From IMG/VR virus record IMGVR_UViG_3300021379_002051, positions 1 through 58,233 of that record: a stretch of 58,233 nucleotides of DNA, one strand, 5' to 3'. A program made the position numbers and the translations under genes. The DNA is from a virus (lineage: Duplodnaviria > Caudoviricetes). Position 1 is the stretch's first letter; the number at the start of each line of letters is the position of its first letter. Below are positions 45,407 to 58,233 of this stretch, in pieces. The notes beneath the pieces were generated by a model, which saw only the letters and a list, made by a program, of their open reading frames with translations, was not told where the DNA came from and made no database searches.

Positions 45407-46004
45407 TAGCTGCAGCTGTCTGTTGTTCTTTAGCCTTTAGCTTTCTTGATTTATTAATTGCTCTATTAACCATTACTCTAGCAACAGTTTCAACATATGG
45501 CAAGCTTCTCTTTTGACTTTCATCCTTAAGCCAATTGAGTATAGTATCTATATTCTGCTCACACCAATCCGGACCTTCATCATTCATCTGCAAAGCATGT
45601 CTCCTACAAGAGCATGTGGATGTACTCTTAATTCCAAGAGCGCTAATCATGCCAGTTAAAATACTACCAGGGCCATTAGGGTCTTGCTCTAATGTTCTTG
45701 GATAATTAGCTTGTAGTTTTACCTGTATCTCTTCGCTTGTTGTGCCTATAACACCAGCCAATAATGTGTCTAACTCTGATCTTGTATAATCCCCAAGACC
45801 ATCATAGGTTTGACCTGTCGCCAAATAATAGCTACCTGGAGCACTTTCTATAGTGGCATACAGATACTTTCTGCTAGTGTCATCATGATAAGTAATTTTT
45901 AATTCTTCCAAAACTACAGGATCAGGCGTAACCACTTTATTGGTTTGCTGATCAGTAGTAGGTGGTGGATTCAAAGTAATGGGACTATCTAGTTTCATAA
46001 TCAA
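45399..46004 (-). CDS. hypothetical protein
   Basis: 201 aa; CSC..A..MN..GPDWC motif. Confidence 0.6.
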   Translation of the reverse strand: MIMKLDSPITLNPPPTTDQQTNKVVTPDPVVLEELKITYHDDTSRKYLYATIESAPGSYYLATGQTYDGLGDYTRSELDTLLAGVIGTTSEEIQVKLQANYPRTLEQDPNGPGSILTGMISALGIKSTSTCSCRRHALQMNDEGPDWCEQNIDTILNWLKDESQKRSLPYVETVARVMVNRAINKSRKLKAKEQQTAAANG

Positions 46005-46480
46005 TTCTCCTTGTTATTTAACTCTAAGTAATAAACTCTTTTAAATATGTATTCCGCTATATCTATAGCATTTGTGGTATTATCGCAAAATAAAACATTG
46101 ATACCATATTTTAACTGCCAATCCAAAATACATTTAACTAAAAAATTTGGTGAAATTTTAATCTTGTTCCACACCCTTTCTGGTAACTCTGAACCAATAG
46201 GAAATTTTAAAACTTTGGACATATCAAACTCTAACAGGAAAAACGGATATTTGAATGTAGACATTCTTTCAAGCACATCCGTAAAACGCTTTTCCGTAAT
46301 ATTATTTGCTATCTCTCCAACAGTTTTCTTTCTTTCGATAGCCAAAATATCTTCAAAACCAGCAATAGTGTAATCTCCGGTATCCAATTTTTGTTTAGCT
46401 GTAGTATAATTATAAAACTCCCAAGGTATTTGTTCTCTAGTATCAACTAATATAGTAACATCTGGATATTTACTTGTCAT
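46001..46480 (-). CDS. ERCC4-type nuclease
   Basis: VDTREQ, LDTGDY, IERK motifs. Confidence 0.85.
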   Translation of the reverse strand: MTSKYPDVTILVDTREQIPWEFYNYTTAKQKLDTGDYTIAGFEDILAIERKKTVGEIANNITEKRFTDVLERMSTFKYPFFLLEFDMSKVLKFPIGSELPERVWNKIKISPNFLVKCILDWQLKYGINVLFCDNTTNAIDIAEYIFKRVYYLELNNKEN

Positions 46481-46748: not shown

Positions 46749-47727
46749 AGTATTTGATATCCGATTTTACCATTTCAGAAACAAGTTGATTGAAACTAAT
46801 ACTAGGGGACCATCCTAGTTTTCTCTTAGCCTTGCTACAATCACCCAACAAAAAATCTACCTCTGCGGGTCTATAGAGACTAGGATCAATTTCAAGGTAA
46901 TCCTTATAATTTAGATCGATTTCATTAAAAGCTAGTTCTAAAAATTCTTGTACGCTATGTGTGCTACCTGTGGCTATTACATAATCATCTGGATATTCTT
47001 GATTAAGCATCATTCTCATAGCTTCGACATAATCTCTAGCATGCCCCCAATCACGATAACTATAAATATTACCTAGTTTCAGCTTATCCTCAGTTAGTCC
47101 ATTAATCAACCTACCCAAATATTTAGTAATTTTTCTGGTAACAAAATTCTCCCCTCTTTTAGGACTCTCGTGATTAAATAATATTCCACTACAAGCATAT
47201 AGACCGTAGCTCTCTCTGTATAATTTTACCATTTGATGAGAAGCAACTTTAGATACAGCATATGGACTTTGGGGGCTGAAATCTGTAGATTCATCTTGAT
47301 ATTTTTCTTTTTCCGTAGAAGAACTATAATTAGAACCAAACATTTCGCTAGTGCTAGCTTGATAAAATCTAGTTTTAGGTGAAACACTTCTAATAATCTC
47401 AAGGATAGATACTACGCCATGAGTATTTATATTAAAGGTATTGATAGGTTGATCAAAACTAGTCCCGACATGGCTCTGGGCAGCTAAATTATAGAATTCA
47501 TCCGGTAAATATTGCGTGATAATTCTATGTAAGGAAGAGTAGTCTGTCAAATCAAATTCTTGCAAATTCAACATAGGATGTTTTATATGTTTTTCAATTC
47601 TCCAAAAATTATTGGTACTATTTCTTCTATATAAACCAATAACATTGTATCCTCTAGACAGTAAAGAACTCATTAAATAGCTGCCATCTTGTCCTGTAAT
47701 ACCAGTAATAATAGCTGTTTTATTCAT
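46732..47727 (-). CDS. gmd: GDP-mannose 4,6-dehydratase
   Basis: ITGITGQDGSYL, YNLAAQSHV, YQASTSE, SPYAVSK, FNHESP.RGENFVTRKI, RDWGHA. Confidence 0.95.
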   Translation of the reverse strand: MNKTAIITGITGQDGSYLMSSLLSRGYNVIGLYRRNSTNNFWRIEKHIKHPMLNLQEFDLTDYSSLHRIITQYLPDEFYNLAAQSHVGTSFDQPINTFNINTHGVVSILEIIRSVSPKTRFYQASTSEMFGSNYSSSTEKEKYQDESTDFSPQSPYAVSKVASHQMVKLYRESYGLYACSGILFNHESPKRGENFVTRKITKYLGRLINGLTEDKLKLGNIYSYRDWGHARDYVEAMRMMLNQEYPDDYVIATGSTHSVQEFLELAFNEIDLNYKDYLEIDPSLYRPAEVDFLLGDCSKAKRKLGWSPSISFNQLVSEMVKSDIKYYEERL

Positions 47728-48553
47728 GATTTTCCTCTTCTACCTGCTCAGGAAAAAGAAAAGGTTTATCTAAATTTCCGTCTGCATATTCGTGTAAGGT
47801 CTGTAAGTTCTGTTTAAATTTTTGTGTTGCCATACTCAAGATTTCCATTTCCCTGCCTTGCTTTTCTCTGGTTTCCTCATCCTCTAGCATTCTTATTAAA
47901 CCAATCCAACTACTCTTACCATCTTCGATACGCTTAATTCTTTGCTCTCTAGTAGCTTTTAGATCTTTACTAATTCTTTGCTGCTCTGCTAACAACTTAG
48001 TATATTCATTAGTATAATTAGCTATACTATTTCTGGCAAAACTTAACTGGGTTTCTAGATTGCTTAACTTAGCAGTGTCTCTATCTGATTCTGGCATAGA
48101 ATATTCAAAATCTACTTGCTTCTGTAATTTTTCTGTTTCACTAATATGTCTTTTTCTCTCCTTCATGCTGCGATTAATTAATATATCAATCGTAATAAAC
48201 TGTTTAATTTGCAGTTCCTCGGCTGGCAATACATCCTCTCTAAATTGTTTGATTAAATTAATCCAAGTAGCTTCAAAATATTGTAACTCACCACTCGGCT
48301 CATCAAACTGCTTTTGTATCTCAGACCAGAAGCTTTTAGCATACAATTTTTGTCGAATCATAGAATCTACAACACTATCCTCACTCAAAGAGTTTTCGCT
48401 AATATACTTTTTTATCGGAGCTGTACTTCTATTGAGATGGTCTGCAATTTGATCAATAGAAAGCTTGTTGAAATTTTGTTTAATATAATCTTGCTCCTCT
48501 AAAGACAACTGTCCTTTTTTTCTAGGAACACTACTTTTTTTTCTGGTAGTCAT
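47720..48553 (-). CDS. HTH plus coiled-coil protein, candidate terminase small subunit
   Basis: N-terminal HTH (SIDQIADHLNRS), long coiled coil, upstream of terL. Confidence 0.45.
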   Translation of the reverse strand: MTTRKKSSVPRKKGQLSLEEQDYIKQNFNKLSIDQIADHLNRSTAPIKKYISENSLSEDSVVDSMIRQKLYAKSFWSEIQKQFDEPSGELQYFEATWINLIKQFREDVLPAEELQIKQFITIDILINRSMKERKRHISETEKLQKQVDFEYSMPESDRDTAKLSNLETQLSFARNSIANYTNEYTKLLAEQQRISKDLKATREQRIKRIEDGKSSWIGLIRMLEDEETREKQGREMEILSMATQKFKQNLQTLHEYADGNLDKPFLFPEQVEEENHE

Positions 48554-49205
48554 TTAGCATCTCTTGTATATGTTTCTGTAATTTATCTAAATACTTTTTA
48601 CTAATTTTAGATCCGTGTTTAAGTTTTAGATAATGCTCCCTATATTCTTTAGAAATATTATTGTCTATATATTCTAATATCTCCTTATCCTCTATAAAAG
48701 ATAAGCTTAAGTTATCATCGTTAATTATATTATGATCTGAAATATGATTAAGCTGCATAATATTTTTCTTAGATTCATTTCTTTCATGCCAAGACCTATA
48801 CTCTTTGCACGATAATTTATCATTAAATTTCGTACATTGATTTGAGCTTTGTTTTAGATGCTTATCATAAAAAGGACAGGATTTGCAAGGTAAATCAGGT
48901 CTCTGATAATTGTTCCTTTTAAAATTAAACAACCTGTTTCTGACATGAGTCCATAGAAAGTTTTCTAATGGTCTGACTCCATCATATTTTTCTAATCCTT
49001 CTAGTGCAAAAATAGCAGCTTGTTGCTTCATGTCTTCAATATCATGATATCCAAATTTAAACTTATAGCTTAATTTTTTGGATATTTTATTCCAAACATT
49101 AACAAATTCTTCATCTGAAACTTTAACCTGCTTATTGTCCGGATTCTGGTCCGGATTCTTGTTCTTTGTCTGTTTCTGTTTCTTCTTGGCTTTGTTTTGA
49201 GTCAT
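48531..49205 (-). CDS. sigma-70-family region-2-like factor (putative late sigma)
   Basis: DIEDMKQQAAIFALEGLEKYD..LENFLWTHVRNRLFN; Cys-rich insert. Confidence 0.7.
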   Translation of the reverse strand: MTQNKAKKKQKQTKNKNPDQNPDNKQVKVSDEEFVNVWNKISKKLSYKFKFGYHDIEDMKQQAAIFALEGLEKYDGVRPLENFLWTHVRNRLFNFKRNNYQRPDLPCKSCPFYDKHLKQSSNQCTKFNDKLSCKEYRSWHERNESKKNIMQLNHISDHNIINDDNLSLSFIEDKEILEYIDNNISKEYREHYLKLKHGSKISKKYLDKLQKHIQEMLNDYQKKK

Positions 49206-49311
49206 TCAATAAAGATGCTATGCTTTTTCCTTCGGGTTTATGTAAATCTTCCCCAACATCTATGTCTGATACGATATTTAATATGCTGCCTGTTAATTGT
49301 GCTTGCTTCAT
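49132..49311 (-). CDS. possible 59-aa protein
   Basis: Hand-translated MKQAQLTGSILNIVSDIDVGEDLHKPEGK...; preceded by the RGTGTAT motif; overlaps the next ORF by 74 bp. Confidence 0.4.
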   Translation of the reverse strand: MKQAQLTGSILNIVSDIDVGEDLHKPEGKSIASLLNDSKQSQEETETDKEQESGPESGQ

Positions 49312-49391
49312 AATGTAACTTGCCTTTTGTTAAGGTTCTACTATAATAATACACCGGTTTATAAAATTGTCAATGTATCCCAGAGACTATC

Positions 49392-49595
49392 ATGAAATAT
49401 AAAAAATGGAATAATCAAGAACTAGATTTCATCAAAAATAATTTTACAGTTATGTCTGATGCTGATCTGGCTCAAAGACTAAGCAAAGAAAATGAAAAAA
49501 TTACTGTATATATGATTAGAAGACAGCGCAGAAGTATACAGGCTAATAAAAAAAGAGGAAGACCCAGAAAAACAAATAACAATGATAATCAATGA
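49392..49595 (+). CDS. small DNA-binding protein (HTH plus AT-hook-like)
   Basis: KWNNQELDFIK..SDADLAQRL..RRQR..KKRGRPRK. Confidence 0.7.
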   Translation: MKYKKWNNQELDFIKNNFTVMSDADLAQRLSKENEKITVYMIRRQRRSIQANKKRGRPRKTNNNDNQ

Positions 49596-50106
49596 TTTGA
49601 TATCTATTTTTCAGTACTGTCTGATAATTTTTGCATTCATATCCATAATAATGATTATGATTTATAGCAATGCTTATTATTATACAATAATGTCCTATAT
49701 ATATCAACACAGCATATTCAACACTATCAATAATGGTCTACAATTCAGTCATGCCTGGAACCATTTTGGAGGACCGTCTATGCCGTTCGACGTATCAATA
49801 AAAGCTATTATTTATCAGGATGAAAAGAGATACGAGATTGTTTTATATGATCCTGCCACAAACACGACTTGGCAAAATAAAAAAATCAATGTGCTAGATG
49901 CTAAGTGGTTTGAATATGTGAAAAACGGTAATCAAGATGCAGTGAAAGCATTATATAATTATTTACAAAGACTGTATCGTACTGATCGCATACAAATACA
50001 GGCACACTTTCAGCCAATGAAAGGTTTTCATGCTATAAATTACCAACATCAAGGTTTTGTACATGATATAAATATACAACAAGAAGGTGGTCAAGACGCT
50101 CATTAA
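49582..50106 (+). CDS. membrane-anchored SdpA/DUF5819-like protein
   Basis: N-terminal TM; GLQFSHAWNHFGGP recalls the W.MFAP motif; upstream of HTTM gene. Confidence 0.45.
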   Translation: MIINDLISIFQYCLIIFAFISIIMIMIYSNAYYYTIMSYIYQHSIFNTINNGLQFSHAWNHFGGPSMPFDVSIKAIIYQDEKRYEIVLYDPATNTTWQNKKINVLDAKWFEYVKNGNQDAVKALYNYLQRLYRTDRIQIQAHFQPMKGFHAINYQHQGFVHDINIQQEGGQDAH

Positions 50107-50134
50107 CCAGCAGCCATAGAAGGAAACACCGTGG

Positions 50135-51034
50135 ATGTTTGAGATAAACGATATTTATGATTTGTTGCTACTACTAGTAGATAACACAAAATATTTTTTA
50201 TTTGAGCCAACTATGTCTACTACTACAGGACTGGCTAGAATCATGATAGCCATTGCAAATATAATATTACTTATGGAATATCGTGATAGAACAGATAGGT
50301 ATCTTAGTACAGCTAGTGTTGCTACATTTCCTAAAGTACATATAAAATATGTAGATTTGCTTGTGTGGGATAGATGGAATAACTGTAATGCTAATAGTTT
50401 TATTATATTTGGTATTTTATGTAGTATAAGTTTCATGGTTGGTTTTTGCTCTAATATATGCGCCCTGTTATTGTATATAGTATCTTTGTCTACGTATAGT
50501 AGAAACTATCTGATAGAAAACGCAGGTCACTGTCAAATGAGAGCAATGCTGCTGCTCATGATATTTAGTAGATGTGGAGATGCTTTATCACTGGACACAA
50601 TAATACAAAATAAAAATTTTATAGGATCTATGGGAGAACCTTGGTGTGATAGATTTATGCAAGTTTTTATAGCGCTAATGTACTATAAAACTATTACATA
50701 TAAAATGATTAGTGGACCATCCTGGTGGAAAGGAGAAGTATTAAGCTATGCTCTTAACTCATTAGAGTTCGGTAAATATTCTCAACATTTTACATTTCCC
50801 AGATGGTTATGTATTATGGGATCATACTATACAATAGCTACACAAAACGCCCTAGTGTATCTAATATGGTTTAAAGAATTTAGGTATTATGTGTTGATCA
50901 ACTCTATGCTACATCATGCTATGATGCTTATGCTTATGAAACTAGGAGCTTTTCCTATTGTTGCTATTAGTTGCTTGAGTGTTTTTGTTCCTTCAGATGA
51001 TCTGGCTAAATTTTTATCTAGATTTATACAATGA
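50135..51034 (+). CDS. HTTM-domain membrane protein (SdpB/vitamin-K-dependent carboxylase-like)
   Basis: Multi-TM; GLARI, SRNYLIENAG, GDALSLD, YK..GPSWWKGE, LIWFKEFR. Confidence 0.75.
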   Translation: MFEINDIYDLLLLLVDNTKYFLFEPTMSTTTGLARIMIAIANIILLMEYRDRTDRYLSTASVATFPKVHIKYVDLLVWDRWNNCNANSFIIFGILCSISFMVGFCSNICALLLYIVSLSTYSRNYLIENAGHCQMRAMLLLMIFSRCGDALSLDTIIQNKNFIGSMGEPWCDRFMQVFIALMYYKTITYKMISGPSWWKGEVLSYALNSLEFGKYSQHFTFPRWLCIMGSYYTIATQNALVYLIWFKEFRYYVLINSMLHHAMMLMLMKLGAFPIVAISCLSVFVPSDDLAKFLSRFIQ

Positions 51035-51300
51035 TAGTGATACTAGACGGATATTGTAAATTTTGCAGAAGGGTGGGCGAATATATGGGGAAATTTACGA
51101 AAATTGGTGATCTAACCGTATTGTATAGTGATATGGAAGATGCTAGGGGCTTAATGTATAAGTATGGTATGGGGGATAGTATTGATAATATAGTGGGAAT
51201 AGTGGGAAACTATAAGGTTGTAGAGGGTGTTTATTGTTGGATTGTAGAATTAATTAAAAGGAGATTGTGGGATGGGAAGAAGAATAGGAAGCAAGGATAA
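51031..51300 (+). CDS. DCC1-like thiol-disulfide oxidoreductase
   Basis: N-terminal VILDGYCKFC (DGxCxxC). Confidence 0.7.
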   Translation: MIVILDGYCKFCRRVGEYMGKFTKIGDLTVLYSDMEDARGLMYKYGMGDSIDNIVGIVGNYKVVEGVYCWIVELIKRRLWDGKKNRKQG

Positions 51301-52354
51301 GAAATCAAGGAAAAAGAAGGTGTTTGTTGATTCTGCACAGGAAAGACAAATTGTGTGTGACTATAATAATGGTATGAGTTCTGCAGACATAAGAAGTAAG
51401 TATGGGATTAGTAATAGTCAGTTGAGCAGAATAAGGGGGGATAGAGGGGTAAAGGTCAAACTAAGAAGAGATATTGTTGATAGTTGGGAGGTAGTAGGGG
51501 ATTTTAAAGACTATAAGGAAACTAGTGGTATATATGCTATATATTTTATCTGGAATTATGATAAAGAAGATCCTGATAAAAACCATAAAATCAATAATAT
51601 AAAAGCTTATATAGGTAGTAGTGTCAATATAGGACAAAGATTAATGGCTCATGATAATGAGTTAAAAAATAATAAGCATTTTAATAAAAATCTGCAGGAT
51701 AGATATAATGATTGTGAATTTTCTGTAAGGTATGCCATAATAGAAGAATGTGGTGAAGATGAGATTATGCAGAAGGAAGGGGGCTATCTTGATAGGTGGA
51801 ATATGGGGTGTCTTTTTAATACGTGGAAGGTTATTAAAAAAGAAGATATAGAGCCGTGGCTAGAAAAAGCTATAACCATGGATGCTTATGATAAAAACTA
51901 TACTATTAGCAAAACGAACTTCTATAATGGAACTGCTTGTAAAGAAACGAATAATGTGCATAAAAGCGGATATGGAAGAATGCAAACAACTATTGAAGGA
52001 GTTACGAAATATCTAGCAAAACATAGAGTAGCATACTGGCATAAGCATGGAGAATATGTTGAGTTGGTGAGACATATGTGTGATAATCCGAAATGTTTTA
52101 ATCCTGAGCATTTAGCAGCAGGGAATCATAGACAGAATAATTTGGATAGGCGAGGCGATTTTCCTGAAGAATTTGAAAGGAAATGGCTGGAGTGTAAAGG
52201 AGATGTGATAAAATTAACAGAAGAATTTGGATGGAAGGCTAACGCTAAACTAAAAGACGGAGGTGTAAGCTGTAGTGTTTATGAATGGGAGAAGAAGCTA
52301 GACTTAAGGAATAAGTATCCTGAAATCGTTAAGAACAGGGGCCTATTAAGATAG
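51272..52354 (+). CDS. GIY-YIG plus HNH homing-type endonuclease
   Basis: SGIYAI..AYIGSSVNIGQRL and KHRVAY..VRHMCDNPKCFNPEHL..GNHRQN. Confidence 0.8.
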   Translation: MGRRIGSKDKKSRKKKVFVDSAQERQIVCDYNNGMSSADIRSKYGISNSQLSRIRGDRGVKVKLRRDIVDSWEVVGDFKDYKETSGIYAIYFIWNYDKEDPDKNHKINNIKAYIGSSVNIGQRLMAHDNELKNNKHFNKNLQDRYNDCEFSVRYAIIEECGEDEIMQKEGGYLDRWNMGCLFNTWKVIKKEDIEPWLEKAITMDAYDKNYTISKTNFYNGTACKETNNVHKSGYGRMQTTIEGVTKYLAKHRVAYWHKHGEYVELVRHMCDNPKCFNPEHLAAGNHRQNNLDRRGDFPEEFERKWLECKGDVIKLTEEFGWKANAKLKDGGVSCSVYEWEKKLDLRNKYPEIVKNRGLLR

Positions 52355-52571
52355 TTTAGGTAATACTTTTTTATTTATATGTCCCTACTGTAATTGCACC
52401 CCGGTGCGTTTTTTATATGGTGGGGATACATCATAATATAATGAAAAAACCCCCCTATATGTAGATATATATGTAAAGTATTGATACGTATAGACTTATG
52501 TGATATACTGCCGGCCGACCCCCTCTGTGGTGGGGTGAACATTATTATACCATGCTAATGAGGGGGATGAT

Positions 52572-52619
52572 AGCAAACTGTGTGCCGAAACACAAAAAAC
52601 TTTTGGCACGATATTTGCA
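52572..52619. promoter_or_regulatory. back-to-back sigma-54 -24/-12 sites
   Basis: Minus TCGGCACACAGTTTGCT (52572-52588); plus TTGGCACGATATTTGCA (52603-52619). Confidence 0.7.
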
Positions 52620-52654
52620 GTAGAAAAAAAATAAAAAAATTTTTCAGAAAGTAC

Positions 52655-52683
52655 TTGACACCTGACGATACTAGGTATATACT
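52655..52683 (+). promoter_or_regulatory. sigma-70 promoter
   Basis: TTGACA-N17-TATACT. Confidence 0.8.
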
Positions 52684-52722
52684 TGAAGCATAACAAGCAA
52701 CCAAGAAAGAAAAGGAAAAGAC

Positions 52723-52917
52723 ATGAAAAAGTTTCTCTCATACTTCGAAGCAAACGGAATTCGCTACACTATCCTCAACAAGATGAGAATCTTTCTCTCA
52801 CAGAATAATCGAGTAGTTGCTGTTCAGCCTCAAGATGCTGTGCTGCAAAAGCCTTCACAAGATCCTCTGCTTGTTCGCTTTTGGCAGAATGAGTTGAATC
52901 GGGAATACGCCCGATAA
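52723..52917 (+). CDS. small early protein
   Basis: Promoter plus AAGGA RBS. Confidence 0.7.
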   Translation: MKKFLSYFEANGIRYTILNKMRIFLSQNNRVVAVQPQDAVLQKPSQDPLLVRFWQNELNREYAR

Positions 52918-52955
52918 AGTAACATATTTACACTACTACTAAAGAGGTACTCACT

Positions 52956-53147
52956 ATGGGTGGTTTCTATTCTAGCGACAAGCGTATCATGGGTTGGATC
53001 AGTGGTTGGATCGACAGGGGATCATCCCCCCATTATAGGGGTGTTCTTGCTGCTCAACTGCGACTGATTCGCAAGAAGCATGGTACCCTACTTGCGAGGG
53101 GGTATCGAGATCATATGCTCTGGATAGGTTCATACCCTACTAGGTAG
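52956..53147 (+). CDS. small early protein
   Basis: GAGGT RBS; 63 aa, basic. Confidence 0.65.
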   Translation: MGGFYSSDKRIMGWISGWIDRGSSPHYRGVLAAQLRLIRKKHGTLLARGYRDHMLWIGSYPTR

Positions 53148-53304
53148 GTTTACCCCCCAAAAGAATTACTAGCCGAACGTAAGTGCTTGGTAGATAAGGA
53201 CTTACGAGCGATTCGGCCGGCCGACCCCCACTGCAGGGGGGTATCACCTAAAGTATCTAGCTAGGGAAGCATACCACACCAAAGAGGGGTATCGCTATTC
53301 TGCT

Positions 53305-53321
53305 AGCAAACGCTGTGCCAA
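53305..53321 (-). promoter_or_regulatory. sigma-54 site
   Basis: TTGGCACAGCGTTTGCT. Confidence 0.75.
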
Positions 53322-53384
53322 ACGAGCAAAAAATGCCGGAAAGTTTTGTCAAATTTTCTTGACATAAAAATTCCAAAATTATTG

Positions 53385-53413
53385 TTGACAACTAAAGATT
53401 GCTTTGGTATAAT
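53385..53413 (+). promoter_or_regulatory. sigma-70 promoter
   Basis: Perfect TTGACA-N17-TATAAT. Confidence 0.88.
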
Positions 53414-53453
53414 GTCGATATAAGGAATAAGGAAGAAAGAAAAGGAGAAAAAA

Positions 53454-53600
53454 ATGGAAATGCAAATCCTCTACATTTCAGATTGCTGCGGTTCATATCT
53501 TGACGATACTCAGATTGAGTATGGTATCTGCAACGATTGCGGTGAGCATTGTGAAGTGCTAACCGAAGAATATCCTGCCACCCCCGTTTGTGGGGGTTGA
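53454..53600 (+). CDS. 48-aa Cys-rich (Zn-ribbon-like) protein
   Basis: Hand-translated MEMQILYISDCCGSYLDDTQIEYGICNDCGEHCEVLTEEYPATPVCGG; AAGGAG RBS. Confidence 0.75.
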   Translation: MEMQILYISDCCGSYLDDTQIEYGICNDCGEHCEVLTEEYPATPVCGG

Positions 53601-53652
53601 CAAACAAAAAACTTTTGGTAGACTGTTGGAAAGTAAGAAAGAGAGAAAGAAA

Positions 53653-53856
53653 ATGAAAACGATTGAAATTTCACCACGTTACGTTGACTATCAAAACTAC
53701 TTCCACGAGATGAGTGACGAGTTGCTCGCAGTGTGGATTGAAGTTGCAGAGCGTAGGCTTCCTACCTATCGTCGGAAGTCTGACTTGGTGTCCGTTGCTT
53801 TGGGTATCCGTGCTGCTAAAAGTGTTCAGCGTTTACGAGAAAGGAATTGGGAATGA
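53653..53856 (+). CDS. small early protein
   Basis: Start MKTIEI after TTGACA-N16-TAGACT (53597-53624). Confidence 0.7.
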   Translation: MKTIEISPRYVDYQNYFHEMSDELLAVWIEVAERRLPTYRRKSDLVSVALGIRAAKSVQRLRERNWE

Positions 53857-53938
53857 TCGTCTTGACCGTTGCTGTTTCGTTTGCTATACTGTTCTGCGGG
53901 TTCGCCGCCCTCTATCTCACCCTATAAGGAAAACCACA

Positions 53939-54262
53939 ATGAGTACCGAAAGCCTAATGGCACAGTTCCCAATTACTCGCAAGGCTTGGAATCAAGTTTC
54001 TGGAATCTGGAAAGGCATCGCCATCCCATGCGAAAAGAGTACCCCTAATGGTGGGGTTGTGCAGAGTGAAAAGGTTCTCAAGTTTACACGCTCGGCCTTG
54101 CGTGAATTGAGAATCACCAAGAAAGTTGATCCCCGTCTTATTGGGGGTGAGGATAGAATGATTGAAAAGGTAGGAAAGCCTGGCTCCCCCGAAAGGGTGG
54201 CTGCATTGGCTGCTCAATATGCTAGGTTGAGTGAAAGTGAATCATCCCCCTTTGGAGAGTGA
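53939..54262 (+). CDS. early hypothetical protein (107 aa)
   Basis: Start MSTESL with AAGGA RBS; TTGACC-N17-TATACT upstream. Confidence 0.7.
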   Translation: MSTESLMAQFPITRKAWNQVSGIWKGIAIPCEKSTPNGGVVQSEKVLKFTRSALRELRITKKVDPRLIGGEDRMIEKVGKPGSPERVAALAAQYARLSESESSPFGE

Positions 54263-54266
54263 AAGC

Positions 54267-54428
54267 ATGAACAGTACCAAACTGACCTATGTACAAGTGA
54301 ACAGCACCGGCGAGAAGCAGTGGGTAAAGGATACGTATGTTCAGGCCTACCCTAAGTTATATACGCCTGTGCAGTTCAAGGGTATCAAAATCCAGGCCGA
54401 GGTGAAGGATATCTATTCCCCTCGATAG
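54267..54428 (+). CDS. small early protein
   Basis: Start MNSTKL with GGAG upstream. Confidence 0.6.
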   Translation: MNSTKLTYVQVNSTGEKQWVKDTYVQAYPKLYTPVQFKGIKIQAEVKDIYSPR

Positions 54429-54590
54429 AGGGGGCCGGCCGGCCAAAATACTTGTAAGTTGTTGATATATAAGCACTTAGGTATACAACGTGCCGCCGAG
54501 CCCCGCCGATGGGGGGTATGGCTACTAGGATGGGTGGTATACATAGGTGTACCACCTAAGCCTACAGGCTAAGTGAACATAGGTACAGCC

Positions 54591-54607
54591 AGCAAACCCC
54601 GTGCCAA
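54591..54607 (-). promoter_or_regulatory. sigma-54 site
   Basis: TTGGCACGGGGTTTGCT. Confidence 0.75.
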
Positions 54608-54680
54608 ACGTACACAAAATTCCAGAAAGTTGTGTCAAAATTTCTTGACATAAAAAATCGAAAAAAACTTCAGAAGTCTA

Positions 54681-54709
54681 TTGACAAATGACGATAAGTA
54701 TGGTATACT
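54681..54709 (+). promoter_or_regulatory. sigma-70 promoter
   Basis: TTGACA-N17-TATACT. Confidence 0.8.
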
Positions 54710-54751
54710 TAACACATAAGAAAGAAAGTTGGAAAGAAAGAGAGTCTGAAA

Positions 54752-54955
54752 ATGGAAGATTATTCGAAACCGTTTGACATCATCGCCAATCTGCCCCGTA
54801 TTCGGAAACGGAAGATTTGGCAAGTTATCATCGACGATACTGTTGTTCAGTTGGTTGGTGCTACCGACAATCGCAAGGCTACTGCCGAGCGATATATCGC
54901 TGGTAAGTATCCAGACGTTCAGTTCACACTGAAATTTTTGGAATATCGCATCTAG
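54752..54955 (+). CDS. small early protein
   Basis: 67 aa downstream of promoter. Confidence 0.7.
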   Translation: MEDYSKPFDIIANLPRIRKRKIWQVIIDDTVVQLVGATDNRKATAERYIAGKYPDVQFTLKFLEYRI

Positions 54956-55026
54956 TCCCCCAGTGTGGGGGTTGACAAACGCAAAATCTTTGGTATAATG
55001 TTCGCAACAGAAAAAAAGGAGAAAAG

Positions 55027-55203
55027 ATGTTCAAAGCAATTGCAAAAGGATTCGACGGTTCGACTCACTACACTTCAGAGTTTCGCAACTACGCTGACGT
55101 TCTCAACTACGTTTTTGCGACTTTCATCGGTTGGGACGTTATTCGAGATATAGAAATTATCGACGCTCAGACTGGTGAGTTGGTTGACGTTGTAGAAAAT
55201 TGA
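55027..55203 (+). CDS. small early protein (58 aa)
   Basis: Hand-translated MFKAIAKGFDGSTHYTSEF...IIDAQTGELVDVVEN; AAGGAG RBS; TTGACA-N16-TATAAT at 54972-54999. Confidence 0.75.
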   Translation: MFKAIAKGFDGSTHYTSEFRNYADVLNYVFATFIGWDVIRDIEIIDAQTGELVDVVEN

Positions 55204-55278
55204 ACTGACCCCCACTAGGGGGGTTGACACGGCAGGAAAAATTTGGTAGAATTGGAAAATCAGAAAGAGAGAAAGAAG

Positions 55279-55470
55279 ATGAGAAAGCCTAGTTTCAAAA
55301 CCGTCGATAGCAAACTGTCCCACTACTGCCGCCGTTTCGGTATGCAGCTGTGGAACCACGGTGATGGCACATATTCATTGTACGATACAAAAATGCAGTA
55401 TCTGGTACTGAATCGTGTTGACCGTCGCCGTGTGGCAATTGAAGTGTACGCATGTTTCAACAACTGCTGA
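55279..55470 (+). CDS. small early protein
   Basis: Start MRKPSF after TTGACA-N17-TAGAAT (55224-55252). Confidence 0.7.
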   Translation: MRKPSFKTVDSKLSHYCRRFGMQLWNHGDGTYSLYDTKMQYLVLNRVDRRRVAIEVYACFNNC

Positions 55471-55653
55471 TCAGTTGTTCACCTATTGCTAGCCAAACGT
55501 AAGTGCTTGGTAGATAAGGACTTACGAGCGATTCGGCCGGCCCGCCCCCACCTTTGGGGGGTACAGTGCCTAGAAGGGGTGGCGTACATAGGTGTACCAG
55601 CTAAGCCTACAGGCTAGGTCAACATAGGCATAGCCAGCCAATTTGGGGGTATG

Positions 55654-55670
55654 AGCAAACTTCATGCCAA
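55654..55670 (-). promoter_or_regulatory. sigma-54 site
   Basis: TTGGCATGAAGTTTGCT. Confidence 0.75.
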
Positions 55671-55802
55671 ACGAGCAGAAAATCTCCAAAAGTTGTGTCA
55701 AAATTTCTTGACATAAAAATGCAGAAAAATCTCTTGACAATTCAAGTTTCACCTGGTAAAATGTCGATATAAGAAGTAAGGAAAGAACGAAAGGAAAAGA
55801 AA

Positions 55803-56030
55803 ATGATGTTCGCAAGCAGGACTGAAATCCAAGACCATATCCAAGACCGTTCAGCCGGCTGGTATGATCAACTGGTGAACGACGGTTCAGTAAGCCCCGA
55901 GCTACTAGCCGATGCTATCGATAATGATGGCGAACTTGAAATCGGCTACGATTTTGGTACGCTCACTATCGACAGTGAAGGGTACATCACCGCTTGGGAT
56001 GCTCTCAACACTGACTGGTATGAGGACTAA
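55803..56030 (+). CDS. small acidic early protein
   Basis: 75 aa; TTGACA-N17-TAAAAT at 55734-55762. Confidence 0.7.
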   Translation: MMFASRTEIQDHIQDRSAGWYDQLVNDGSVSPELLADAIDNDGELEIGYDFGTLTIDSEGYITAWDALNTDWYED

Positions 56031-56119
56031 AAAAATCCAAAAAAATACTTGACAAGCTCAAGTTCATCTGATAAAATGTCGATATAGAAAGTAAGGAAGA
56101 AAGAAAGAGAGAGTGAAAG

Positions 56120-56296
56120 ATGAGTAAGTATCAAATGTTCAGTACCTATCGTCGCCATGATGGCGGTTACTTTGAATGCTACAAGAACGATGAGTATCTT
56201 GGTAACGTGTACGCTAGTACAGAGAAGGCTGCAAGGTATAAAGCCTTCAAGTTGTTTGGTGTTTGGTGCAATGTTTATTGGCAAGATGGAGAATGA
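56120..56296 (+). CDS. small early protein (58 aa)
   Basis: Hand-translated MSKYQMFSTYRRHDGGYFECYKNDEYLGNVYA...; TTGACA-N17-TAAAAT at 56049-56077. Confidence 0.7.
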   Translation: MSKYQMFSTYRRHDGGYFECYKNDEYLGNVYASTEKAARYKAFKLFGVWCNVYWQDGE

Positions 56297-56541
56297 ACAT
56301 GAAAAAGCCTGAGTTTAAAACTAAATTCAAAAGTGTTCGTGATGAAATCATGGCTCTTGAGTGTGAGCAAGAATCAGAATCTGGTGGGTTAGAGTTTCAA
56401 GAAGCAGTCCGTTGGCGACTTGCTCAACTTGAAAATGATTATTGGGAAGATGATGAACCAGAAGAAGAGTTTGTTGTTAGGAAAAAGAAAAAGTCGAAAT
56501 GTTATAGTAGGTTCAACGGTGGTTGGATGTTTGTGGATTGA
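56293..56541 (+). CDS. small early protein
   Basis: ATGA overlap with the previous ORF. Confidence 0.65.
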   Translation: MNMKKPEFKTKFKSVRDEIMALECEQESESGGLEFQEAVRWRLAQLENDYWEDDEPEEEFVVRKKKKSKCYSRFNGGWMFVD

Positions 56542-56550
56542 GGAGAAAAG

Positions 56551-56733
56551 ATGAAAACTAAACTTTACCATTCGGAAACTGTACCGCCTTCACACAAGGA
56601 ATGCCCAACGGGTTACTGTAGAACAGAAAACGGGTTTTGGACTTATTCAAGAAGAGCGGCTCGTGATTATCGCTTCTTTCGTCTGAATGGTGGTTGGATG
56701 TTTGTGGATATGAGGAAGCAAGATGAAAAGTAA
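56551..56733 (+). CDS. small early protein
   Basis: GAGGAG RBS. Confidence 0.65.
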   Translation: MKTKLYHSETVPPSHKECPTGYCRTENGFWTYSRRAARDYRFFRLNGGWMFVDMRKQDEK

Positions 56734-56891
56734 ACTTGACAATGACGGCCTGGCCGTTATACTGTTTCTTATGGTGTGTGTTGTGGTAATATTTATGGAA
56801 AGATTAGGGTAAGGGATAGTCCCCTCTTTGGTGGGGGCCGGCCGGCCGAGTCGGCCATAAGTCCTTACGCCCCAATGACTTACGATCACAG

Positions 56892-56908
56892 AGCAAATTC
56901 TGTGCCAA
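56892..56908 (-). promoter_or_regulatory. sigma-54 site
   Basis: TTGGCACAGAATTTGCT. Confidence 0.75.
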
Positions 56909-56995
56909 AAAAGAAAATAATTTTTCCAGATTTTTTCTCTTGACATTCAAGTTTGCTGTGGTAGAATTCCGATATAGAAAGTAAGGAGAACAAAA

Positions 56996-57301
56996 ATGAA
57001 GGCACACAACCCACGAATCGTTTGCAAAGATGGTTTCAGTATCAGTGTTCAGGCCCGTGAGACTGCATACTGCACGCCACGAAGCGACCACGGCCCATAC
57101 TCGCATGTAGAGTGTGGATACCCTAGCGAGGTTCCAAAGAGTTGGACATTTCGGGAATTCTCGGAAGCCGCCCAATTTGGCAAGGGTTATCCAAAGGATG
57201 AAGAATACACGGACACGGTATATCCGTATGTTCCGGTTGATCTTGTTCGGCATGAGTTGGATTTGCATGGTGGAATTGTTGAAGGAAGGTTGCCAGAATA
57301 G
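56996..57301 (+). CDS. phage hypothetical protein
   Basis: RIVCKDGFSISVQA..YCTPR..VECGYPS..VYPYVP; AAGGAG RBS; TTGACA-N16-TAGAAT at 56940-56967. Confidence 0.75.
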   Translation: MKAHNPRIVCKDGFSISVQARETAYCTPRSDHGPYSHVECGYPSEVPKSWTFREFSEAAQFGKGYPKDEEYTDTVYPYVPVDLVRHELDLHGGIVEGRLPE

Positions 57302-57312
57302 GAGAGATTGAA

Positions 57313-57477
57313 ATGGCTTGTATCCAGATGATTGTTGAGTTGACAATTCGTGACCCCAATTATCCAGAGGGGGATGAGCGTAATACTCGGGTAATAAGGA
57401 ACGGAACTTGTTTCTCTGCCACGCCAGAGTGGCAATGGTTGATTGATGCTGGGTTTGCAGTTTGGTACTATGTTTAG
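57313..57477 (+). CDS. small early protein (54 aa)
   Basis: Hand-translated MACIQMIVELTIRDPNYPEGDERNTRV...; AGGAG RBS. Confidence 0.6.
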   Translation: MACIQMIVELTIRDPNYPEGDERNTRVIRNGTCFSATPEWQWLIDAGFAVWYYV

Positions 57478-57487
57478 GGAGAATGAA

Positions 57488-57622
57488 ATGACTGAGTATG
57501 ATGAGGGATATGAGGATGGATACCATGATGCTTGGGATGAACTTGAGGCATGGTATGGTATAGATGATATGGGTTGGGATTGGTATGTGGTGGGTGAGGA
57601 TGAGTATGAGACCGTGGATTGA
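57488..57622 (+). CDS. 44-aa acidic/aromatic peptide
   Basis: MTEYDEGYEDGYHDAWDELEAWYGIDDMGWDWYVVGEDEYETVD; GGGAG RBS. Confidence 0.6.
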   Translation: MTEYDEGYEDGYHDAWDELEAWYGIDDMGWDWYVVGEDEYETVD

Positions 57623-57836
57623 TGAGGGGCCTTGGCTTGATGAGTATGGTTGGATACTGGCCGTATGCTATCATGTAACATTTACTATTATGTTTACTAG
57701 ACTAATGTTCAGTGATAAACGTAAGTAATTGAAAATAAAGGACTTACGAGCGGCGAGGCCGGCCGGGCCCCTCGGCTGGGGGGTTGACCCACTTGTATTA
57801 CCTAAGCCTGCCGGCTAAGGCTTAGATGGTATAGCC

Positions 57837-57853
57837 AGCGAAAACCGTGCCAA
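57837..57853 (-). promoter_or_regulatory. sigma-54 site
   Basis: TTGGCACGGTTTTCGCT. Confidence 0.65.
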
Positions 57854-57937
57854 ATAAAAATTATTTTTTCCTATAGTTTAGCCGGCCGAATGTCGATATA
57901 TAAAGTATTGGCAAGGATAACCCACGGAGAATGAAAG

Positions 57938-58099
57938 ATGATGACGCTCTACACGATTTTTGGAATGTTCGTTGGTTTCGAGGGATACGATAATGGCAAG
58001 GTTTATTTTGGGATTTATACCCCCCAATATGAGTATGGGTATGTGGTTACGCCGAACGAGATTTATCTGGACACAATTTTGGAAAAAACTCAAGATTAG
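57938..58099 (+). CDS. small early protein (53 aa)
   Basis: Hand-translated MMTLYTIFGMFVGFEGYDNGKVYFGIYTPQYEYG...; GGAG RBS. Confidence 0.6.
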   Translation: MMTLYTIFGMFVGFEGYDNGKVYFGIYTPQYEYGYVVTPNEIYLDTILEKTQD

Positions 58100-58169
58100 G
58101 GGTTGACTTGGCCGATCTAAGGAGTATAATTCGGGAATGACACGCAACCAACACCACGGAGGCTTGAAA

Positions 58170-58233
58170 ATGGACGATATCAACACCACTCTCTTGATTG
58201 CTTCTCTTGAGGCTGAAGGAATCGTTGAACCTT
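58170..58233 (+). CDS. partial early ORF
   Basis: MDDINTTLLIASLEAEGIVEP...; GGAGG RBS; TTGACT-N16-TATAAT at 58103-58130. Confidence 0.55.
   Translation, partial: MDDINTTLLIASLEAEGIVEP

Follow-up and report, generated by a model that had tools for sequence, protein, structure and literature searches.

Global regulators can act through dispersed palindromic operators, such as the KorB operators of plasmid RK2 and the C1 operators of phage P1. Repetitive extragenic palindromes (REP) and bacterial interspersed mosaic elements (BIME) are extragenic imperfect palindromes that occur in many copies and are associated with RAYT transposases. The PeSL of T4-type phages have been described as mobile regulatory cassettes (Arbiol et al. 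2010, PMC2839356; Comeau et al. 2014, PMC4122927), and the first paper describes them as combining a consensus sigma-70 promoter with a poly-C/poly-G stem-loop and AT-rich sequence upstream, ahead of small ORFans. We analysed an array of small genes in a linear IMG/VR viral record (IMGVR_UViG_3300021379_002051; 58,233 bases, estimated to be 39% complete), the whole of which is called the window below. The array carries six copies of a 29-bp imperfect palindrome, which a first-pass annotation, made from the sequence alone, had proposed to be either the crossover site of an integron-like cassette system or a repeated operator for a dimeric protein. The second of these proposals fits best: the palindrome may be a protein-binding regulatory or architectural site within composite early control regions, a reading for which we put the chances of being right and wrong about level.

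A 29-bp palindrome in composite control regions

The palindrome, with the half-site CGTAAGTCCTTG, was searched for with the pattern CGTAAGTNNTT-N7-AAGGACTTACG (CGTAAGTnnTT-N7-AAGGACTTACG; no more than three mismatches), 100 dinucleotide-preserving shuffles providing the background. Five of the six reported sites matched (0.00 expected from the shuffles); the copy at 52472, degenerate as already annotated, was recognisable from its context alone, as a 62%-identity member of a 79-nt repeat family (D2). No additional copy was found in the window, even with up to 7 mismatches to the 22 positions of the symmetric consensus. The 7-bp cores read as first given (GGTAGAT twice, GATATAT, GGGGCGT on the reverse strand and GAAAATA), with five different cores among the six copies, and the inversion of the copy at 56856 was confirmed by its match on the minus strand.

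Minus-strand structural and packaging genes, including those for the tape measure and the large terminase, fill positions 1-49,205, plus-strand genes follow from 49.4 kb onward, and the array of small open reading frames (ORFs) with near-perfect sigma-70-type promoters extends from 52.4 kb to the end of the window, with a G+C content of 41-46%, versus 31-39% in the rest of the window. Two to five tiny ORFs with promoters had been announced between sites: the ORF list, read by eye, gave 2, 5, 3, 5 and 3 small plus-strand ORFs between successive sites, and 13 plus-strand sigma-70-like sites (at least 10 of 12 consensus positions) were found in the array. In the window, the palindrome starts 25-44 nt past the last stop codon. 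It opens a module that continues with the box GGCCGGCC and a CCCCC-loop-GGGGG hairpin, an insert of about 90 nt (in three modules), the motif AGCAAA-N5-GTGCCAAA, a single or double TTGACA-17-TATAAT promoter and, last, a leader that is conserved and a purine-rich stretch for ribosome binding. On the minus strand, AGCAAA-N5-GTGCCAAA reads TGGCAC-N5-TTGC, the -24/-12 signature of sigma-54. The (G)GCCGGCC box, reported to lie exactly 8 nt from the arm, does so at five sites (53215, 55535, 57757, 54433-54444 and 56836-56847) and is about 9 nt away at the other (52510). A hairpin of four to six C and four to seven G residues follows the box at every site, and the copy at 54453 has GC boxes on both flanks, both as annotated. 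Canonical intrinsic terminators were not enriched in the array (4, versus 6.0 expected, none at the palindromes) and the tails after the sites were not T-rich, giving no U-tract; Rfam gave no match at the gathering score in the window and none at E values of up to 1 in 52300-58233.

Other phages carry the element as well. Its exact 29-bp pattern was present in at least 120 stretches of IMG/VR contigs, and in these stretches plus the window (1.1 Mb) 663 unique sites were found at no more than 5 mismatches in 22 positions, versus one in the shuffle; the 11-7-11 geometry of inverted arms around a 7-bp core is common to five window sites and these 663 related sites. In each of four complete relatives (CheckV-100% records of 166.6, 170.5, 194.8 and 204.6 kb; G007-G010), all the sites (16, 15, 12 and 29) were confined to a single stretch of 13-19 kb (7-10% of the genome) formed, as in the window, by an array of small plus-strand ORFs, together with tRNA genes. 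These four phages have only 23 protein families in common at the BLASTP level, and the palindrome is therefore better conserved than most of their proteins. Its usual form in the relatives is a pair, in which two palindromes with unrelated cores surround a G+C-rich linker of about 24 nt, the linker-side arms being near consensus and the outer arms more variable. The start-to-start offset was 53 bp in all seven pairs of G007 and in locus L029; in G009 and in a single pair of G010, it was 50 bp. Each operon of G007 ends with its last ORF, followed by a palindrome pair at or within a few nucleotides of the stop codon, an optional sigma-54-type motif, a promoter and the next ORFs. Among 50,697 phage records (INPHARED), a megablast search with the array and a short blastn search with the site gave nothing relevant, and the large terminase was at most 24-27% identical to that of any cultured phage. 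The 11-nt motif strings retrieved only unrelated eukaryotic primer matches from the open literature; the element seems to be undescribed, while being in kind a variant of known things.

Position statistics for 530 sites, oriented by the side of the G+C-rich box, revealed 93-100% conservation of T3 A4 A5, T10 T11, A19 A20 and T25 T26 A27, with central positions 13-17 close to random. The proportion of Watson-Crick pairs at variable arm positions of 502 distinct phage copies was then compared with that in column shuffles, and no compensatory changes between the arms were detected: the observed and expected values were 0.58 and 0.61 for pair 6-24, 0.65 and 0.70 for pair 7-23, 0.58 and 0.62 for pair 8-22, and 0.38 and 0.45 for pair 9-21, the commonest state of which was G opposite G (167 copies). 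The variant half-site CGTAAAC (for CGTAAGT) occurred in one arm only, in the left arm of 78-80 copies and, mirrored, in the right arm of 59-71; as these frequencies are about equal, there is no strand bias, and G·U-compatible changes are not preferred on one strand. The arms thus vary independently, as predicted for copies of a sequence recognised by a dimeric DNA-binding protein, and not as predicted for a selected RNA hairpin.

The palindrome also stands in a regular relation to promoters. Among sigma-70-like promoters lying within 200 bp of 743 sites, 373 fire away from the site and 39 towards it, a bias due in part to all the genes pointing one way. Two distances between the site edge and the start of the -35 hexamer were the commonest: 29-31 nt (48 cases) and 82-83 nt (26 cases), the latter corresponding to the far member of a pair. 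Many promoters of the clade have a common spacer word, (G/A)CGATA(A)T, between the -35 and -10 hexamers (in the window, at 52655-52683 and 54681-54709; throughout in L125), and many of its sigma-70-type promoters also have the conserved transcribed leader GTCGATATAAG; this word or leader may be a second operator or a start-site signal.

The sigma-54-type motif was found 75 times in 120 loci, versus a mean of 3.0 (maximum 7) in 20 shuffles, and was present in 33 of these loci. All five strict TGGCAC-N5-TTGC matches of the window lie in the array (52.6-56.9 kb; one plus-strand and four minus-strand copies), as do 20 of the 22 matches in five related records, for which the reversed control gave none. 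The positions left free in the search were strongly biased among 79 distinct instances (TT before TGGCA, 81-82%; a purine after TGGCAY, 98%; T before TTGC, 78%; A or T after TTGC, 86%), in agreement with the sigma-54 consensus. These motifs pointed towards a palindrome in 85 cases and away from it in 51. For the towards-pointing motifs, the distance between first base and site edge clustered around two values, 27-28 nt (21 cases) and 80-81 nt (17 cases), so that the predicted sigma-54 start falls at the edge of the palindrome.

A scan of prokaryotes with the symmetric pattern (one genome per species) yielded at least 120 stretches. Nine of the stretches listed were small contigs of metagenome-assembled genomes (MAGs) with phage-type arrays, which are probably mis-binned phage; the remainder were single intergenic copies. 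Among the matches listed, 15 of 125 bacterial copies lay 2-22 nt after a tRNA or transfer-messenger RNA (tmRNA) gene and 19 lay inside crude ORF calls. Chance palindromes were ruled out as an explanation by controls with the pattern read backwards, which is also a palindrome and has the same composition: five bacterial genomes contained 29, 16, 9, 3 and 1 copies at no more than two mismatches (control, 0), and 301 sampled Planctomycetota genomes contained, at no more than one mismatch, 42 places in 27 genomes, versus three control places. In the 16-copy genome (G012, locus L224), the palindrome lies 14 nt upstream of a TGGCAC-N5-CTGC motif, beside a divergent gene for a GAF/sigma-54 activator; a second -24/-12 motif has a copy 24 nt upstream of it, and further copies come after tRNA or tmRNA genes. 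Loci L311 and L212 have similar arrangements, with the palindrome upstream of a -24/-12 motif. In L224 (2801-5194), the TGGCAC-N5-CTGC motif heads a CMD (AhpD-like)/thioredoxin/SDR operon divergent from the activator gene, and the intergenic region contains GAAATTTC inverted repeats and one phage-type palindrome. Rfam matches in the bacterial loci were limited to the neighbouring tmRNA and tRNAs. Integration scars were rejected as an account of the tRNA-adjacent copies: the ten neighbouring genes were one integrase, one transposase, one TnsA-like gene and otherwise ordinary genes.

A candidate protein-binding site and its alternatives

We infer binding by a protein, its supply by the host and any effect on transcription from the patterns described above. 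The palindrome would be the signature of composite control regions that separate early operons in tailed phages with genomes of about 165-205 kb, which form a large uncultured clade. It would be read as double-stranded DNA by a dimeric protein, probably host-supplied, that organises or regulates transcription at the adjacent promoters: a strong sigma-70-type promoter into the next operon and, in many copies, a putative sigma-54-type promoter beside the site. The repeated operator for a dimeric protein named by the first-pass annotation agrees best with the independent half-sites, the 53-bp offset of the pairs and the -35 hexamers at 29-31 nt. Since the site is conserved across very different phages and is present in bacterial chromosomes, a host protein is the simplest guess. 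The invariant TT and AA steps, symmetric about the dyad, are 9 bp apart, the spacing of the two kinks made by IHF/HU-type (DNABII) proteins, which is a lead rather than a test.

Within the phages, none of the four complete relatives had PF00216 (HU/IHF) or PF02195 (ParB_N), and no small DNA-binding protein common to the four emerged from profiles of 60 protein families associated with the arrays. The families reaching all four genomes were a sigma factor, an epimerase, an ERCC4 nuclease and a 216-aa family of unknown function. The sole shared transcription protein is a sigma-70-family factor (30 bits for the copy in G010, versus a cut-off of 24; the window copy, at 17.9, falls below it), the gene for which lies at the head of the leftward operon in the window (48531-49205, minus strand) and adjoins the array in 27 other loci; its more likely role is in the expression of later genes. 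The 277-aa protein encoded at 47720-48553 was not retained as a candidate binder, as it looks more like a small terminase: it has a predicted N-terminal three-helix bundle and long coiled coils (AlphaFold2, mean predicted local distance difference test score 81), no PDB sequence match better than E 0.017, no Foldseek match at E ≤0.001 and a weak match to a PHROG 'D5-like regulator' (E 2e-4).

Several observations weigh against a protein-binding site. Family searches provided no candidate for the binding protein. The window sites lie 57-183 nt, not 29 nt, from the first -35 hexamer, and the fixed spacings seen elsewhere could reflect inheritance through whole-cassette duplication rather than functional upkeep. 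Four of the five strict sigma-54-type motifs in the window point away from the genes. Sites directly after stop codons, tRNA genes or tmRNA genes occupy positions at which terminators or RNA-stabilising hairpins are also found, and arm complementarity in the bacterial copies exceeds expectation (0.54 versus 0.39; 0.45 versus 0.26). Finally, the presence of the palindrome inside a dispersed repeat in one bacterial genome suggests a mobile repeat.

A bolder extension of the protein-binding reading is that the early programme of the clade is wired to the sigma-54 of the host, through a site for a bacterial DNA-binding protein conserved across phyla, combined with a -24/-12 promoter that has its predicted start at the edge of the site and would often fire antisense into the early operon before it; we regard this as doubtful, with only a small chance of being correct. 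Neither the four complete phages nor the window had a match to PF04552 (sigma-54), and the enhancer-binding ATPase family PF00158 gave one weak AAA+ match in one of five records and none in five fragments; if the motifs are promoters, they depend on host factors. Such wiring would constitute an activator-gated switch, permitting, for example, the antisense shut-off of early genes or the sensing of host state, and the occurrence of the same module in Planctomycetota and other bacteria would point to the hosts of these phages.

The palindrome could instead act as an RNA or single-stranded hairpin at the ends of operons, as a terminator lacking a U-tract, a processing site or a REP-like mRNA stabiliser, and we judge this unlikely, while leaving it an appreciable chance. 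The palindromes are close to stop codons in both the window and G007, their predicted hairpins are foldable (-11.8 and -6.9 kcal/mol, z about -5), so that an RNA role for such a fold retains some probability, and, in the absence of any enrichment in intrinsic terminators, something else must end the operons. The 15 bacterial copies just after tRNA or tmRNA genes, with arm complementarity somewhat above expectation, point in the same direction. Against this, the 502 phage copies have no compensatory changes, a G·G mismatch is the commonest state of pair 9-21, about 150 copies carry the one-armed GT-to-AC change, which breaks two stem pairs without strand bias, and primary sequence conservation far exceeds the needs of a stem; furthermore, there is no U-tract and the sites occur in both orientations. 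Contigs from one metatranscriptome run (X18) stop at 53215 and 54483 and start at 57754, but repeats are places at which an assembly is expected to break, and the ends of RNAs cannot be read from contigs. Neither the RNA-contig ends near sites nor the bin without RNA cover at 54545-54739 was retained as evidence, because repeats break assemblies.

It is improbable that the palindrome is a REP/BIME-like selfish repeat spread by a host Y1 (RAYT/IS200-type) transposase and having at most a secondary function. The bacterial copies are multiple and extragenic, and the paired copies are mirror-symmetric about a short linker, as in BIMEs. The 29-copy genome (G014; L289-L308) has a dispersed repeat, 150-200 nt long, in which many contigs of this MAG end; the palindrome occupies the centre of this repeat, with a GCGC-GAAAAA-GCGC hairpin and ACCCAGTTACA direct repeats (two or three, at 21-nt intervals) on its flanks. 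PF01797, the Y1 transposase family, had six matches in G012 and two in G014, with a distance of about 1.3 kb between one match and a copy; however, such transposases were also present in 6 of 14 control genomes, so their presence in these two genomes means little, and none was found in three complete phages (G007, G008 and G010). Moreover, the phage copies are restricted to operon boundaries of the early array and retain one consensus despite the phages having only 23 families in common, and the unrelated cores of pair members show that the pairs are not inverted duplicates.

Cassette exchange between relatives is real and frequent, and involves every repeated regulatory sequence. In a close relative (L088), the ORF at 52956-53147 is missing, 54267-54428 is replaced by another gene, and a paralogue of the ORF at 53654-53856 stands where the window has two ORFs; these differences start 35 nt upstream of the site at 53178 or at ORF starts, and homology (72% over 867 nt) continues unbroken across that site. 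Comparison of five reference arrays with all other loci gave 93 homology breakpoints. The distance to a site centre was at most 4 nt for two of them, where random positions would give about 1%, and at most 20 nt for eight, where they would give 4-6%; this is a coarse test, given the imprecision of the ends of high-scoring segment pairs. Joints were also obtained by aligning contigs from two DNA runs and two metatranscriptome runs with the array. Most of the 15 joints listed, of 38, link leaders (53434 to 55022, 53440 to 56098 and 53632 to 55262), promoters or GC hairpins (one hairpin-plus-promoter joint running from 55229 back to 53607). Two joints skip the whole 57720 module, beginning 9 nt before it, and one contig switches exactly at the right-arm edge of the copy at 53178 (53206 to 54502, with 20 other letters between). 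On the protein-binding reading, cassettes would be swapped by ordinary homologous recombination between repeats (leaders, promoters, GC hairpins and palindromes), as for the PeSL of T4-type phages.

A phage nuclease that cuts the palindrome, such as the ERCC4-type nuclease encoded at 46001-46480, could seed recombination or replication in the early region, which would suit the marked mosaicism of this region, the dimeric habit of PD-(D/E)XK enzymes on palindromes and the presence of the ERCC4-domain protein among the few common to the four complete relatives and the window. Nevertheless, this is very improbable: the gene is located in the packaging module, beside the terminase and an HNH gene, a location in keeping with debranching, the breakpoints do not cluster at the sites, and the bacterial copies and the link to promoters would be left unexplained.

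The proposal that the palindrome is the core site of a phage or host XerC/D-like tyrosine recombinase moving cassettes in integron fashion is close to refuted. The 11-7-11 geometry with independently varying arms would fit, as would the inversion of one copy along with its boxes, the contig changing partner at an arm edge and the roughly twofold excess of breakpoints within 20 nt. However, a search for the tyrosine recombinase family PF00589 gave no match in the four complete relatives or the window (the control was positive in 14 of 14 genomes), consistent with the annotated absence of a recombinase from the window, serine recombinases not having been searched for; a host enzyme retains some probability. 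Identical overlaps between partner sites were limited to the copies at 53178 and 55498, and in every genome the cores vary from one copy to the next, ruling out exchange between copies that differ. The predicted concentration of breaks at the 7-bp core was not observed, with only two of the 93 breakpoints within 4 nt of a centre and L088 homology crossing 53178 intact, and no joint of 53178 with 55498, the exchange singled out in advance, was present among those listed, most of which involve other repeats. The palindrome is not supported as a crossover site, nor is an integron-like mechanism. The claim of a phage integron can be removed, and gene shuffling here needs no dedicated recombinase.

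Feature positions and neighbouring genes

The positions of the palindromes and of the other elements of the control regions are given in Table 1.

Table 1. Palindrome copies and associated control elements in the window
Feature	Position	Strand	Remarks
Palindrome, degenerate copy	52472-52500		TGTAAAGTATTGATACGTATAGACTTATG; 6 of 20 specified positions differ (our own count)
Palindrome, core GGTAGAT	53178-53206	+	0 mismatches
Palindrome, core GATATAT	54453-54481		3 mismatches; GC boxes on both sides (54418-54444 and 54501-54516)
Palindrome, identical to the 53178 copy	55498-55526	+	0 mismatches; 79-nt surroundings 90% identical to those of the 53178 copy
Palindrome, inverted	56856-56884	-	1 mismatch on the minus strand; inverted repeats I1-I3
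Palindrome, core GAAAATA	57720-57748	+	0 mismatches; region 88% identical in relative L090
GGCCGGCC box and CCCCC-N6-GGGGGG hairpin	53215-53241	+	Folds as a stem
Box-plus-hairpin equivalents	52510-52535, 54418-54444, 54501-54516, 55535-55561, 56821-56847, 57757-57783		
Tandem sigma-70-type promoters heading the next operon	53359-53413	+	11-12 of 12 consensus matches
Equivalent sigma-70-type promoters	52655-52683, 54645-54709, 55708-55762, 56940-56967		
Internal PeSL-like unit	53581-53624	+	CCCCC-loop-GGGGG, then directly TTGACA-16-TAGACT; families D10 and D12
Further PeSL-like units	54957-54999, 55209-55252		
Conserved structured insert (about 90 nt) between palindrome and promoters	54501-54596	+	Families D8 and D9 (81% and 72% identity)
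Other copies of the insert	55546-55641; in part 57766-57819		
Sigma-54-type motif TGGCACGATATTTGC	52604-52618	+	Strict match; points to the genes
Sigma-54-type motif	53306-53320	-	Strict match
Other strict sigma-54-type motifs	54592-54606, 55655-55669, 56893-56907	-	
Weaker sigma-54-type variants	52573-52587, 57838-57852		Families D7 and D11

An A+T-rich island (49300-52360; about 31-33% G+C) separates the sigma operon from the array. Two genes were noted in it. The first (50135-51034) encodes a putative membrane protein with an HTTM domain, its 26.8 bits narrowly missing the cut-off; the product of the second (51272-52354; 360 aa) resembles HNH homing endonucleases and, when inspected by eye, looks GIY-YIG-like in its N-terminal half. 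The 3,525-aa protein encoded at 12249-22826 (minus strand) matched PHROG tape-measure families in its first 500 residues, with E values down to 3e-25, and its length implies an unusually long tail. Hairpin promoters like those of phage N4 were considered and rejected, this large ORF encoding a tape measure and not a virion RNA polymerase. Within the array, the adjacent small ORFs at 56299-56541 and 56551-56733 both end in NGGWMFVD (56515-56538 and 56686-56709; 24 nt, 96% identical), which may indicate a local duplication or a common C-terminal module.

The part of the array present in the window has no tRNA genes, and the arrays of G007-G010 (L125-L128) carry four to eight each; a suppressor tRNA considered for L029 was rejected, the gene being that for tRNA-Lys(ttt). 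The core common to G007-G010 (in G010, L251, L252 and L258) includes a dCMP deaminase, a nucleoside deoxyribosyltransferase-like protein, a dNMP kinase, a GMP reductase/IMPDH, PhoH, UvdE and a GT4 glycosyltransferase, and this set suggests that the DNA of these phages may contain modified bases. Runs from 13 studies (estuary, oyster, freshwater, marine and plastic metagenomes) contained 30-41% of the words sampled from 52400-58233.

Comparison with described systems

If a protein does bind the palindrome, then one short DNA word would mark the early control regions of a clade of large uncultured phages from estuarine, freshwater and marine samples; it could serve as a probe for early regions, as bait for the binder from a cultivable bacterium that carries the palindrome, such as the Aeoliella isolate represented by the nine-copy genome (G011), and as a lead to the hosts. 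Sigma-54-type promoters, seldom met in the early region of a phage, would gain a further example.

The likeness to T4-type cassettes proposed by the first-pass annotation holds for the shuffling itself and for the units combining a CCCCC-loop-GGGGG hairpin with TTGACA, but not for the palindrome or the sigma-54-type motif. The window has in common with PeSL, as defined in the sections consulted, dense arrays of small ORFans in which each gene or small operon has a sigma-70 promoter of consensus type, AT-rich sequence upstream and a stem-loop of poly-C and poly-G, the promoter/stem-loop combination being recognisable in the three internal units of Table 1. As described there for T4-type phages, relatives differ by indels and replacements bounded by repeats, a pattern found here in the contig joints and the L088 mosaic. 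The present phage is nevertheless not T4-like, judging from its 3,525-aa tape measure and the 24-27% identity of its large terminase to cultured counterparts, and the 29-bp palindrome, its pairing about a GC-rich linker and the sigma-54-type motif are layers beyond the PeSL description in those sections. A sigma-54-like promoter in a phage has a precedent, the only one to emerge from literature searches on sigma-54 and phages, in Pseudomonas phage YuA (bioRxiv 10.1101/2023.10.13.562163, citing Ceyssens et al. 2008); a single promoter is reported there, whereas dozens of copies occur here, tied to a palindrome and many of them antisense to early genes.

As for KorB and C1 operators, many copies of one palindrome are found at set distances from promoters, serving many operons of one replicon. 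The differences are that no cognate regulator gene was found here (ParB_N was absent from the four complete relatives) and that the palindrome is also present in bacterial chromosomes. Architectural sites of the IHF/Fis type, which occur at sigma-54 and strong sigma-70 promoters, resemble the palindrome in lying upstream of promoters, as it does directly upstream of the -24/-12 motif in L224, L311 and L212, and the 9-bp spacing of its TT/AA steps about the dyad is that of DNABII kinks. In contrast to such sites, it is a true palindrome, generally without a match to WATCAANNNNTTR, no phage HU/IHF gene accompanies it, and many phage copies have a sigma-54 motif pointing into the site. REP and BIME elements likewise often form inverted pairs with a linker at operon ends; the phage palindrome differs from them in its confinement to one region, in the retention of one consensus across very distant phages and in having arms that are not kept complementary.

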